A DNA stretch of 64,000 bases from a virus, in IMG/VR virus record IMGVR_UViG_3300019471_000109, positions 1 to 64,000 of that record. One strand, written 5' to 3'. Every line of letters starts with the position of its first letter. The first letter of the stretch is position 1. Below, piece after piece: positions 26,653 through 62,455 of the stretch. The notes under the pieces were generated by a model that was not told where the DNA came from, ran no database searches, and saw only the letters and a list, made by a program, of their open reading frames with translations. Position numbers and translations under genes: made by a program.

Positions 26653-26704
26653 TTTACATCCTCATTTGTTCTTGATATTATAGCTACATCAACAAACAAA
26701 TGAG
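26653..26704 (+). promoter_or_regulatory. Promoter/palindrome cassette copy A: -35 TTTACA (26653-58), -10 TATTAT (26676-81), flanked by the inverted repeat CCTCATTTGTT / AACAAATGAGG
   Basis: Shares the 3' 50 nt with the cassettes at 37975 and 62378. Confidence 0.55.
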
Positions 26705-26715
26705 GATTTTTTATT

Positions 26716-26922
26716 ATGAAAACATTAGAATTTAAAAATGACAGCGAAGAACTTATCGTTGAAAAATTTAATGATGGATCTGTAGAATTGTCTATTGAAT
26801 ACGAAACGCCGATTTGGGCTTCATCGGATTCCCCTGCTTTTGTGTCATCATCATTTACTCTTCCAAAAGAACAAGTCGCTTCTCTAATTGAATTTTTAAC
26901 CAAAAGTTTAGAAGGAAAATAA
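26716..26922 (+). CDS. Hypothetical protein (68 aa)
   Basis: ORF track; it follows promoter copy A. Confidence 0.55.
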   Translation: MKTLEFKNDSEELIVEKFNDGSVELSIEYETPIWASSDSPAFVSSSFTLPKEQVASLIEFLTKSLEGK

Positions 26923-26923
26923 A

Positions 26924-27934
26924 ATGGGTGGTAATGCATTTCATGGTTTATCCAGAATGACTGAAGCTGGATATATTTTTGCTACAAATGTAGTTGCAAA
27001 ACATATGAACCTAATTGGTTTACATAATTCTTATTTTCCAAAAACATTTAGAAAAGAAAGTTATGGTGATGTTGATGTATTTTTAAAATGTGATGATAAA
27101 ACATTATTTGAACAAGATACAGGTCTTTTGAATATTATTGACAAAAGAACAAATGGTGATTCAGTTCATTATCTTTGCGAAGTTAAATTAGATTTAGATA
27201 CATCATTTAAATTCCAGGTTGACTTGAATTACTGTGATAATCCATTATTCCAAGCTGAATATTTTTCTTACGGTGGATTATGTGTATTTTTAAGCTTAAC
27301 CGCAAAAACACTTGGTTTAAAATTTAATAATAAAGGGTTATTTTTAGAAAAAGAATACATTAATTTAAAAGGTCGTAAAGAAGAACCTATTACAATTTTA
27401 ATTGATAGTTCTTTTGATAGAATCCTTAAAAAGTTGGGATTCAGCCCAGTTGAATTCAGTCGTATAACTAATTTTGAAGAAGCTGTTTTATTTTTGAAAA
27501 AGTCGAAATACTTTAATGACTATGAAATTTTAGATGCAAAAATTAAACAAAAATTTGAGTTATTAGATTATTTCAGAAATAACTATTTAAGATTATCACC
27601 AACATATAAAAACGATTATTCTTTTTCTGTTGAATCTGTAATTAATTATTCTTATTTAGCATATAAATTGCGTTTTGAAATTAAACAACGACGAGCTAAA
27701 GAACATTTTAATAATCGTTTTAAATTTAACCGAGTTTATAAATTATCAAAATATTTACTTAGAACACATAGAATTAAATGTGAATTAACTAATGAAGATA
27801 TTGGAAATGTAATTCGTTTATCAAAACAGCGATATTATATGAACAAATTAAAATATGAATCACGAGCAGCATTAAATTGTTTAATCTCATGCGTGATTAC
27901 AGAATATTGTGCAGCAAATAAAAGTTATTCTTAA
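26924..27934 (+). CDS. Hypothetical protein (336 aa)
   Basis: ORF track. Confidence 0.6.
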   Translation: MGGNAFHGLSRMTEAGYIFATNVVAKHMNLIGLHNSYFPKTFRKESYGDVDVFLKCDDKTLFEQDTGLLNIIDKRTNGDSVHYLCEVKLDLDTSFKFQVDLNYCDNPLFQAEYFSYGGLCVFLSLTAKTLGLKFNNKGLFLEKEYINLKGRKEEPITILIDSSFDRILKKLGFSPVEFSRITNFEEAVLFLKKSKYFNDYEILDAKIKQKFELLDYFRNNYLRLSPTYKNDYSFSVESVINYSYLAYKLRFEIKQRRAKEHFNNRFKFNRVYKLSKYLLRTHRIKCELTNEDIGNVIRLSKQRYYMNKLKYESRAALNCLISCVITEYCAANKSYS

Positions 27935-27993
27935 TCAAAACAGATTAAAATAAAAATCTCAATTTCCGATAAACAGACAAGAAGGATAAAATT

Positions 27994-61550: not shown

Positions 61551-61563
61551 TTGATTAATCTGT

Positions 61564-61588
61564 GGGGTTAATATTAACCCCATTTTAT
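61564..61588. terminator. Terminator (GGGGTTAATATTAACCCC + T-run)
   Basis: Perfect palindrome plus T-tract. Confidence 0.6.
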
Positions 61589-61614
61589 AAATAGAAATCG
61601 TTTAAGGAATACAA

Positions 61615-62379
61615 ATGAAATTATTAAAAACATTATTAATTAGTTTATCTGTTGCATTAGTTGCTGCATGTGGTAATTTAAGTAAAGTTACAAATGAAGG
61701 TACTTTAGCTGATGGTCATGAACTTGTTTGGCCGAAAATTGAAAAATCTGGATTTAATCATGATGGTTCACAATTTGGCACTTGGCCAAATTTAGATAAT
61801 TTAACAACGGTTGAGTTATCTGGTAAAGGCATGAACAAAGATCAATTACATAATTTATTAGGACGTCCGCATTTTGCTGAAGGTTTATTTGGTGTATCTG
61901 AATGGGATTATGTTTTCAATTTCAAAGAAAATGGTGTTCATAAAATCTGTCAATATAAAATCCTATTTGATAAAAACCATAATGCTCAATCGTTCTTTTG
62001 GAATCCAGTAAATTGTGGTTTAGATAAACAAATTCACGAAGTATCTGCTGACTTTTTATTTGGTTTTGACTCTTCTAAATTAACTGAACAAGGTAAAACT
62101 TATTTAGTTGAATATCTAAAACAATTAACTGATGCTAAATCTTTAACTGTAATTGGATATACTGATAAACTTGGTTCAGACAAATATAACGTGAAATTAG
62201 CAACCGCCCGTGCAGATTCTGTTAAAGAATTTTTGATTCAAAATGGTATCAAAGCAGATATTAATACCACAGGTTTTGGTAAAGATGAAAAACAAGTACA
62301 ATGCGATAACTTTAAATCATCTGAACTAATCGATTGTTTAGCACCTAACCGTCGCGTAGAAATTATTTCTTACAAATAA
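61615..62379 (+). CDS. OmpA-C-like peptidoglycan-binding lipoprotein (Pal/TpgA-like; lipobox LVAAC)
   Basis: Lipoprotein signal, then an OmpA-like C-terminal domain (GYTDKLGSDKYNVKLATARADSV, NRRVEI). Confidence 0.75.
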   Translation: MKLLKTLLISLSVALVAACGNLSKVTNEGTLADGHELVWPKIEKSGFNHDGSQFGTWPNLDNLTTVELSGKGMNKDQLHNLLGRPHFAEGLFGVSEWDYVFNFKENGVHKICQYKILFDKNHNAQSFFWNPVNCGLDKQIHEVSADFLFGFDSSKLTEQGKTYLVEYLKQLTDAKSLTVIGYTDKLGSDKYNVKLATARADSVKEFLIQNGIKADINTTGFGKDEKQVQCDNFKSSELIDCLAPNRRVEIISYK

Positions 62380-62455
62380 TAAATTTTTTGAAAAATCTAT
62401 TTACATCCTCATTTGTTTTTGGTATTATAGCTACATCAACAAACAAATGAGGATT
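62378..62455 (+). repeat. About 78-bp promoter/palindrome cassette copy C (-35 62400-05, -10 62423-28)
   Basis: Identical to 37975..38052. Confidence 0.7.

Follow-up and report, generated by a model that had tools for sequence, protein, structure and literature searches.

Promoter-early stem-loop (PeSL) cassettes have been described in the T4-type phages RB49/phi1, T4/PST and KVP40/nt-1 (Arbiol et al. 2010, PMC2839356; Comeau et al. 2014, PMC4122927). The PeSL stem-loops act as terminators, and the PeSL promoters are very strong in reporter assays (PMC2839356). The promoter consensus published for the T4/PST pair is TTTACW-N17-TAYWAT (PMC4122927), and T4-type early promoters carry GTTTAC at –36 to –31 and an A-rich, UP-like region (PMC1524935). 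Another relevant set of elements comprises the hairpins of the T4 genes e, soc, 49 and I-TevI, which mask the ribosome-binding site (RBS) and contain an internal promoter (McPheeters 1986, as reviewed in PMC3014915). Here we analyse a promoter-hairpin element repeated three times in a 64,000-nt stretch of viral DNA, positions 1 to 64,000 of the IMG/VR record IMGVR_UViG_3300019471_000109 (the window). We interpret the element as a member of the PeSL type with a gene e-like geometry of masking of the Shine–Dalgarno sequence (SD), and not as a repressor operator. We consider it probable that the copies function in a T4-like phage as compact cassettes for early expression that insulate themselves from upstream transcription.

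Three matches to CCTCATTTGTT-N24-AACAAATGAGG have been identified in the window, at 26660-26705, 38005-38050 and 62407-62452, all on the + strand, with 0 matches in 100 dinucleotide shuffles; hence, the three copies reported in the preliminary description are borne out. Copies 2 and 3 are exactly identical over 77 bp (37979-38055 and 62381-62457). Their identity had been noted before, at 37975..38052 and 62378..62455 and over about 78 bp, with coordinates that are 1–4 nt off. Between copy 1 (26653-26710) and copy 2, 56 of 58 positions agree; the two mismatches, 26671 (C/T) and 26675 (A/G), leave exact runs of 18 and 35 nt, compared to the shared 3' 50 nt of the preliminary description. The inverted repeat around the –10 box, previously given as 11 bp, is indeed perfect and is longer: ATCCTCATTTGTT(T) / (A)AACAAATGAGGAT comprises 13 bp in copy 1 and is extended to 14 bp in the other two copies, with the half-site centers 35 bp apart. 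In each copy an A/T-rich stretch is followed by TTTACA, 17 nt, and the extended –10 box TGnTATTAT, and then by GAGG and ATG; the hexamers and the spacer agree with the preliminary description, to which the TG two bases 5' of the –10 is added. The distance from GAGG to the start codon is 10, 8 and 9 nt (ATGs at 26716, 38059 and 62462), consistent with the cassettes being promoters directly upstream of genes. The elements of the copies are as follows.

26629..26652, + strand: copy 1, A/T-rich upstream (UP-like) stretch, directly after the TAA of an SPFH/Band-7 gene
26653..26658, + strand: copy 1, –35 hexamer TTTACA
26658..26670, + strand: copy 1, left (5') arm ATCCTCATTTGTT, in the promoter spacer, holding the sequence CCTC complementary to the SD (anti-SD)
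26676..26681, + strand: copy 1, –10 TATTAT, preceded by TGA (extended –10), in the hairpin loop and upper stem; putative start at about 26686-26688
26695..26707, + strand: copy 1, right (3') arm AACAAATGAGGAT including the SD GAGG at 26702-26705, followed by U6 and the ATG at 26716
37971..37997, + strand: copy 2, A/T-rich upstream stretch; identity with copy 3 begins at 37979
37998..38003, + strand: copy 2, –35 hexamer TTTACA
38003..38016, + strand: copy 2, left arm ATCCTCATTTGTTT with the anti-SD CCTC, in the spacer
38021..38026, + strand: copy 2, –10 TATTAT, preceded by TGG; putative start at about 38031-38033
38039..38052, + strand: copy 2, right arm AAACAAATGAGGAT with the SD GAGG at 38047-38050; ATG at 38059
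62381..62399, + strand: copy 3, A/T-rich upstream stretch, the same as in copy 2 from 62381
62400..62405, + strand: copy 3, –35 hexamer TTTACA
62405..62418, + strand: copy 3, left arm ATCCTCATTTGTTT
62423..62428, + strand: copy 3, –10 TATTAT, preceded by TGG; putative start at about 62433-62435
62441..62454, + strand: copy 3, right arm AAACAAATGAGGAT with the SD GAGG at 62449-62452, followed by U5 and the ATG at 62462

The cassette promoter is an exact fit to the T4/PST early consensus and also fits the description of T4-type early promoters. Generic scanning for sigma-70 promoters is uninformative in such A/T-rich DNA (142 matches vs. 117 expected, and 113 vs. 121 expected), and hence an extended motif was needed: TATTTACA-N15-18-TAKWAT has eight matches in the window, compared to 0.14 expected. 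The palindrome-free promoters listed in the preliminary description, at 24650 (– strand), 44907, 44998, 48408, 57501, 59372 and 62998, are all present, and an additional one is found at 23345; each of these sites is located just 5' of an SD and ATG, in the correct orientation. From the motif we infer that the cassette promoter is active and that transcription starts approximately 5–7 nt past the –10.

The 5' arm of the hairpin, with the anti-SD CCTC, lies in the promoter spacer, the 3' arm, with the SD GAGG, lies in the 5' leader of the downstream gene, and the –10 is enclosed between them. In the sense RNA, the predicted structure is a stem of approximately 19 bp, AUCCUCAUUUGUUUUUGGU / AUCAAC-AAACAAAUGAGGAU, with one bulge, one G.U pair and an 11-nt loop AUUAUAGCUAC; its free energy in the three copies is predicted to be –18.1 to –19.2 kcal/mol (z = –6.4 to –7.3). 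As the –10 is in the loop and the putative start is 5–7 nt downstream of it, transcripts from the cassette's own promoter exclude the left arm; this RNA, holding only the 3' arm, is predicted to be essentially unstructured (–0.6 kcal/mol). Partition-function calculations give the SD a probability of 0.00 of being unpaired in the read-through RNA of all three copies, and of 0.63, 0.16 and 0.54 in the own-promoter RNA of copies 1, 2 and 3, respectively.

This geometry suggests the following mechanism. A polymerase arriving from the upstream gene would transcribe both arms, and the read-through RNA would fold into the hairpin of about 19 bp followed by a run of U, with the RBS masked and transcription probably attenuated or terminated. 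RNA from the cassette's own promoter would start inside the loop, contain the 3' arm only, remain open and be translated. Masking and possible termination of the read-through RNA would thus act in the same direction, and expression of the downstream gene would depend solely on its own immediate-early promoter, irrespective of the upstream context. As the copies are 58–77 bp of near-identical sequence, they would also be substrates for homologous recombination, and recombination between them would lead to gene conversion and to deletion or replacement of genes between or beside them.

The similarity to PeSL cassettes extends to all their sequence-level features. The motif is repeated in a T4-like genome (three copies in the window with 0 expected, and up to six sites in relatives), it has a sigma-70-like early promoter, here in the T4/PST form, with an A/T-rich upstream region, and the promoter is overlapped by a stable stem-loop. 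Moreover, the SD and start codon are at the 3' end, the copies are intergenic, mostly before ORFans, and they are associated with insertions, deletions and replacements between close relatives. Still, there are differences. The published PeSL stem-loops are compact, often of the G(n)-loop-C(n) form, and are located wholly 5' of the start site with a separate SD, whereas the stem in the window closes around the entire –10 together with the putative start site, and the SD is formed by its own 3' arm. There is no sequence relationship with the G/C stems of RB49, the copies are unusually conserved (77 bp identical), and the cassettes belong to an uncultivated lineage with 29% GC, known here from sequence alone.

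The masking geometry is shared with the hairpins of T4 e, soc, 49 and I-TevI: transcripts initiated upstream have their SD paired, the promoter lies within the DNA of the 5' arm and loop, and own transcripts are translatable (in the window, as predicted). However, these T4 genes have gp55-dependent late promoters (TATAAATA), by which their expression is postponed until late infection, while the internal promoter in the window is of the early sigma-70 type and the late promoter of the T4 e class is absent. With an early internal promoter, the effect would be confinement of expression to the immediate-early window and insulation from upstream read-through. In the reviews PMC3014915, PMC2988021 and PMC1524935 we found no account of an early promoter placed inside a hairpin that masks the SD; older T4 literature was outside this search, and therefore we do not claim the early-promoter version as undescribed.

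Searches of viral and metagenomic collections yielded 22 distinct cassette variants at six genomic sites in the same phage group, and BLAST against cultured phages demonstrates that the same layout is widespread among cultured T4-like phages. In T4 itself (NC_000866) it is observed at alc (136276-136340, –24.4 kcal/mol), regB (62741-62800, –24.1 kcal/mol) and denV (65356-65415, –19.3 kcal/mol). These loci and their homologues in Winklervirus, Jiaodavirus, Kagamiyamavirus and Tegunavirus share with the window GTTTAC, the anti-SD in the spacer, the –10 in the loop and the SD in the 3' arm, and copy 2 in the window also precedes a weakly Alc-like gene. On the other hand, the cultured examples are single-locus elements, unlike one another within a genome, and lack the U-run, while the window sequence is homogenised over at least three sites, six in relatives. 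The arm classes of the phage group and the arms found in cultured phages and a related contig are given below.

Type A: arms CCTCATTTGTT / AACAAATGAGG, approximately –18 kcal/mol
Type B: arms CCTCTTTCTGTTTTGGT / ATCAAAACA..AAAGAGG, in a different pairing register, –17.3 kcal/mol
Third class: arms CCTCATTTGGAT / ATCCAAATGAGG (TTGGAT / ATCCAA), approximately –20 kcal/mol
Erwinia phage Vettismorki and Serratia phage LC53, upstream of regB: 11-nt arms identical to those in the window
EcS1, alc: TTTGTTG / CAACAAA
Klebsiella phages PKO111 and SmallBear, alc: CAG / CTG
CHI14-like contig: TTCGTT / AACGAA
Yersinia phage fHe-Yen9-01: a U.G pair
CC31: a change from A-U to G-C

At least five different compensated sequences of the inner arm exist. 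For 25 distinct arm pairs, the summed length of complementary runs at the free inner positions is 85, compared to 41.8 in partner permutations (p < 1e-4), and the covariation score is 0.198 vs. 0.082 in shuffles (0 of 500 score as high) and 0.035–0.097 in slid controls, with the reservation that the set was gathered with a pattern fixing the outer 7 bp and consists of related sequences, and hence the shuffle statistics are inflated and the independence is overstated. Types A and B are found together in one genome (related contig L009), and A/B hybrid hairpins fold at only –7 to –13.7 kcal/mol. Such conserved pairing with changing arm sequence is the pattern that selection for intramolecular pairing predicts.

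These observations bear on the suggestion of the preliminary description that the palindrome is an operator of a dimeric regulator. The arms would then be half-sites for a dimeric or tetrameric DNA-binding protein, repressing or timing the three promoters together by binding on both sides of the –10. A perfect inverted repeat of 13–14 bp flanking the –10 would suit such a protein, but the 35-bp spacing of the half-site centers would be unusual for a dimer. At the three sites the arms do not vary among at least five related genomes, yet the conserved outer part, CCTCAT / ATGAGG, is accounted for by the SD function, and the inner positions show covariation in place of conservation; L009 holds two arm types, both at approximately –17 to –18 kcal/mol, and their hybrids fold poorly. 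The symmetry at the DNA level is perfect and the folding has no strand preference, but the right arm is always the SD, the left arm is its complement, and the element is always oriented along transcription. The mechanism of early-promoter shut-off in T4 is still incompletely understood (PMC3014915), a point in favor of this reading; no regulator was identified here, and no DNA-binding family was detected in the small downstream genes. As a dimeric regulator predicts conservation of half-sites, and what is conserved in the data is the pairing and not the sequence, we find no support for the operator reading and regard it as quite improbable.

The second alternative concerns the U-run, which follows the stem as U4-7 at every site of the phage group. 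The hairpin might be just an intrinsic terminator of the upstream gene that overlaps the next promoter, the SD masking being incidental and without effect. The stability of –18 to –19 kcal/mol and the G/C-rich base CCUC / GAGG fit a terminator, while the 11-nt loop and the A/U-rich stem are atypical for it. The U-run is retained even at the sixth site, with 22 nt between GAGG and the ATG and a separate SD located past the run. However, the hairpins of T4 (alc, regB, denV), EcS1, PKO111 and Vettismorki lack the U-run but retain the anti-SD/SD pairing, with covariation. A PeSL stem-loop lowered lacZ expression as much as rrnB T1 (PMC2839356), and separate terminator-like hairpins are observed near other promoters in the window, e.g., a 12-bp hairpin with a U-run at 48362-48392, just 5' of the promoter at 48408; still, termination and masking are not mutually exclusive roles. 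We consider termination as the only function unlikely. The absence of the U-run in cultured relatives indicates that termination is not a conserved property, and that SD masking is the conserved feature; termination is likely a lineage-specific addition.

The suggestion of the preliminary description that identical copies could mediate recombination or deletion is supported by concerted evolution and, in relatives, by a deletion between neighboring cassettes and by replacements. In the window copies 2 and 3 are alike and copy 1 is another allele. A related genome repeats this pattern with a different assortment of alleles: its copies 2 and 3 share the allele that copy 1 has in the window, and its copy 1 is a third allele. 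Identity within genomes together with difference between genomes implies concerted evolution. In a 158-kb contig, a segment of approximately 0.8 kb between two neighboring cassettes is absent, and the two alignments overlap inside the cassette, placing the crossover there. In L009 the gene immediately behind copy 3 has diverged (approximately 55% identity, by eye from the alignment), its flanks are more than 95% identical, and the boundaries of the replacement are sharp, at the ATG of the cassette and at the next SD. The open reading frame (ORF) behind the plain promoter at 62998 is replaced by an unrelated ORF in a relative, and hybrid cassettes are seen among relatives. Junctions at cassettes are also observed in L022 and L035, short low-coverage contigs that may be assembly chimeras, and we regard them as weak evidence. 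Overall, comparison of these genomes supports participation of the repeats in recombination.

Could recombination at the DNA level be the main role? In such a case the palindrome would be recognised as a cruciform or single-strand hairpin by a recombination protein or a structure-specific nuclease, and the cassette would be chiefly a mobile linker for shuffling of modules or formation of mini-circles, with the effects in RNA being secondary. The authors of the PeSL work speculated on a stem-loop-binding recombination protein and demonstrated mini-circles, but the same study notes that homologous recombination of the T4 type needs less than 50 bp of homology (PMC2839356), and hence the repeats of 58–77 bp suffice without any special structure. 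The breakpoints and hybrid cassettes do map to these elements, and the copies evolve in concert, yet plain promoters without the palindrome also flank replacements, e.g., at 62998. The DNA hairpins have –12.6 and –13.2 kcal/mol on either strand, but this reading offers no account of why one arm is always the SD. We regard this reading, too, as quite improbable.

Several observations weigh against the cassette being self-insulating at the RNA level. The block of transcription and translation in read-through RNA is what we infer from modelled folding, and the start site is placed by its distance from the –10. The own-promoter RNA of copy 2 retains a partly paired SD (the unpaired probability of 0.16 given above). 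With its A/U-rich stem and 11-nt loop, the hairpin is not called by a consensus terminator scan, and the same hairpin in the cultured relatives has no U-run. No systematic strand bias is observed, the sense RNA being more stable in 14 cases and the antisense RNA in 20, and the folding of DNA is symmetric, with the energies already cited; hence, pairing in single-stranded or cruciform DNA may also apply. We argue for pairing in RNA because of its fixed relation to the SD, its orientation relative to transcription and the precedents. Further, in some variants (L001 at 5284, –7.2 kcal/mol; L026, L034 and L027) the left arm is decayed while the promoter and SD are kept, and thus either the hairpin is dispensable at some sites, or these are sequencing errors in low-coverage contigs. 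Finally, the inflation of the covariation statistics by the choice and relatedness of the arm pairs belongs here too.

The transferable point is the conserved placement of the anti-SD in the promoter spacer, which is testable at T4 alc, regB and denV. Tentatively, and with more doubt than confidence, we suggest that it may represent a general, ancient T4-like design making a gene translatable only from own-promoter transcripts, both here and at the three T4 loci and with covariation between genera, and that in this lineage it may have spread over several loci as a portable module kept homogeneous, with any gene behind it being immediate-early only. For alc, regB and denV, a need for tight control of timing or dosage is presumed. 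If the anti-SD/SD pairing at these loci indeed restricts translation to transcripts from their own early promoters, a hypothesis that can be tested in the model phage, then the shut-off of early promoters would end synthesis of Alc, RegB and DenV despite ongoing read-through. In the phage studied here, approximately 60 bp would pack a promoter, an insulator against upstream transcription and an RBS; a newly acquired gene behind the cassette would obtain a defined expression window, and the same repeats would serve as crossover points for swaps of genes. The motif may also be a practical marker of early transcription units and hyperplastic regions in annotation of metagenomic phages. In T4, hairpins around the –10 are also observed at the ipII and cd.3 promoters, with the SD not included.

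The genes of the window are those of the early region of a T4-like myovirus (approximately 29% GC), with rIIA, rIIB, topoisomerase genes for gp39 and gp52, a Dda-like helicase, a dexA-like exonuclease, primase and RnlA. For the large subunit of the topoisomerase, identity to the counterparts in T4-like phages of Providencia, Aeromonas and Acinetobacter is only approximately 50%. A 2.5-kb piece of the window has no near-identity match at the DNA level among cultured phages; the lineage is uncultivated and is represented solely by metagenomic contigs, 92–95% identical ones being present in IMG/VR and public metagenome assemblies. All three cassettes begin directly after the TAA stop of the upstream gene and end 6–8 nt short of the next ATG:

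copy 1, + strand: upstream, the SPFH/Band-7 gene 25693-26628 (TAA 26626-26628); downstream, a 68-aa ORFan 26716-26922
copy 2, + strand: upstream, the dexA-like exonuclease gene (TAA 37968-37970); downstream, a 173-aa weakly Alc-like gene 38059-38580
copy 3, + strand: upstream, an OmpA/BamE-like gene 61615-62379 (TAA 62377-62379); downstream, a 69-aa ORFan 62462-62671

The similarity of the gene behind copy 2 to Alc is seen with PHROG 1253 (E = 5e-9), Pfam ALC is under the cut-off, and the identity to T4 Alc is 27%; the two other genes behind cassettes have no family match. In relatives, approximately 200 bp of extra sequence is found in or after the small ORFan behind copy 1 (L002 7095-7295 compared to window 26887-26912), and approximately 25 bp of the window sequence align on both sides of it. 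Upstream of copy 3, the OmpA/BamE-like gene (+ strand) adjoins a gene for a YadA-like trimeric autotransporter adhesin with head, stalk and membrane-anchor domains (59466-61550, + strand); this pair is an uncommon cargo for a T4-like early region and may hint at the host.

Stem-loops in varied positions are observed at other promoters in the window, and match several PeSL subclasses of the literature. A strong hairpin AAATCGTTAC...GTAACGATTT with a U-run (59401-59445, + strand) is located directly 3' of the promoter at 59372 and 5' of the YadA-like gene, resembling a leader attenuator. AGATCT...AGATCT flank the –10 of the promoter at 57501 (57501-57535, + strand), a palindrome lies between the –35 and –10 of a promoter at 21397 (21397-21424, + strand), and GTGG...CCAC are found around the –10 of the promoter at 44998 (44998-45026, + strand). 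The latter belongs to a 680-bp stretch (44376-45059), collinear in relatives, with tandem early promoters at 44907 and 44998. The first of them has the same –10 and initial transcribed sequence as the cassette, GATATTATAGCTACAT, and the second is followed by the right arm of the cassette, CAACAAATGAGG, as the SD (45036-45051, with an exact arm match at 45041), without the left arm; judging by these matches, both may be half-cassettes. A 15-nt match to the left arm at 44684, within a TAG-containing frame on the – strand (44406-44807), is probably not a remnant of a cassette.

Outside the close relatives, a protein-guided search for distant orthologous sites returned only close relatives, and in two T4-like genomes of 170 kb (L013 and L015) the –10 and the initial transcribed sequence are common, with no palindrome. 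The cassettes match no curated covariance model, as only tRNAs reach the gathering score in the Rfam scan of the window. Scanning of bacterial genomes for the palindrome yielded nothing but unrelated palindromes, from Bacillaceae and a small number of other assemblies, with no promoter among those inspected and no clue to the host. In particular, a dispersed palindromic repeat GGCCCCCTCATTTGTTGAG...CTCAACAAATGAGGGGG in Halalkalibacterium halodurans, Pallidibacillus and other Bacillaceae (among L075-L092, a set that also includes one Prevotella assembly and one Saprospiraceae metagenome-assembled genome) holds the same 11-nt arms, has no promoter, and is unrelated to the phage cassette.

The tRNA cluster of the window (19887-23050) includes a partial tRNA predicted by Rfam at 22480-22540 (+ strand) and not reported by ARAGORN, and a 91-nt suppressor-type tRNA with anticodon CUA (21606-21696, + strand). 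TAG is apparently read as a sense codon by the phage: long frames that are open only with TAG read-through, with up to 16 in-frame TAGs, occupy the gene-less gaps of the standard ORF list. Besides 44406-44807, examples are:

11319-12857, + strand: TAG-containing frame
957-1946, – strand: TAG-containing frame
6856-8145, – strand: TAG-containing frame
4473-5375, + strand: TAG-containing frame
57709-58446, + strand: TAG-containing frame
33800-35245, + strand: TAG-containing frame

The frame at 44406-44807 may be DUF1353-like, as judged by eye from its motif, with TAG at a conserved position. In a relative (L009, approximately 3050-2000, – strand), a release-factor-2 gene with the classic frameshift site CTT TGA C is located just past the end of the window.

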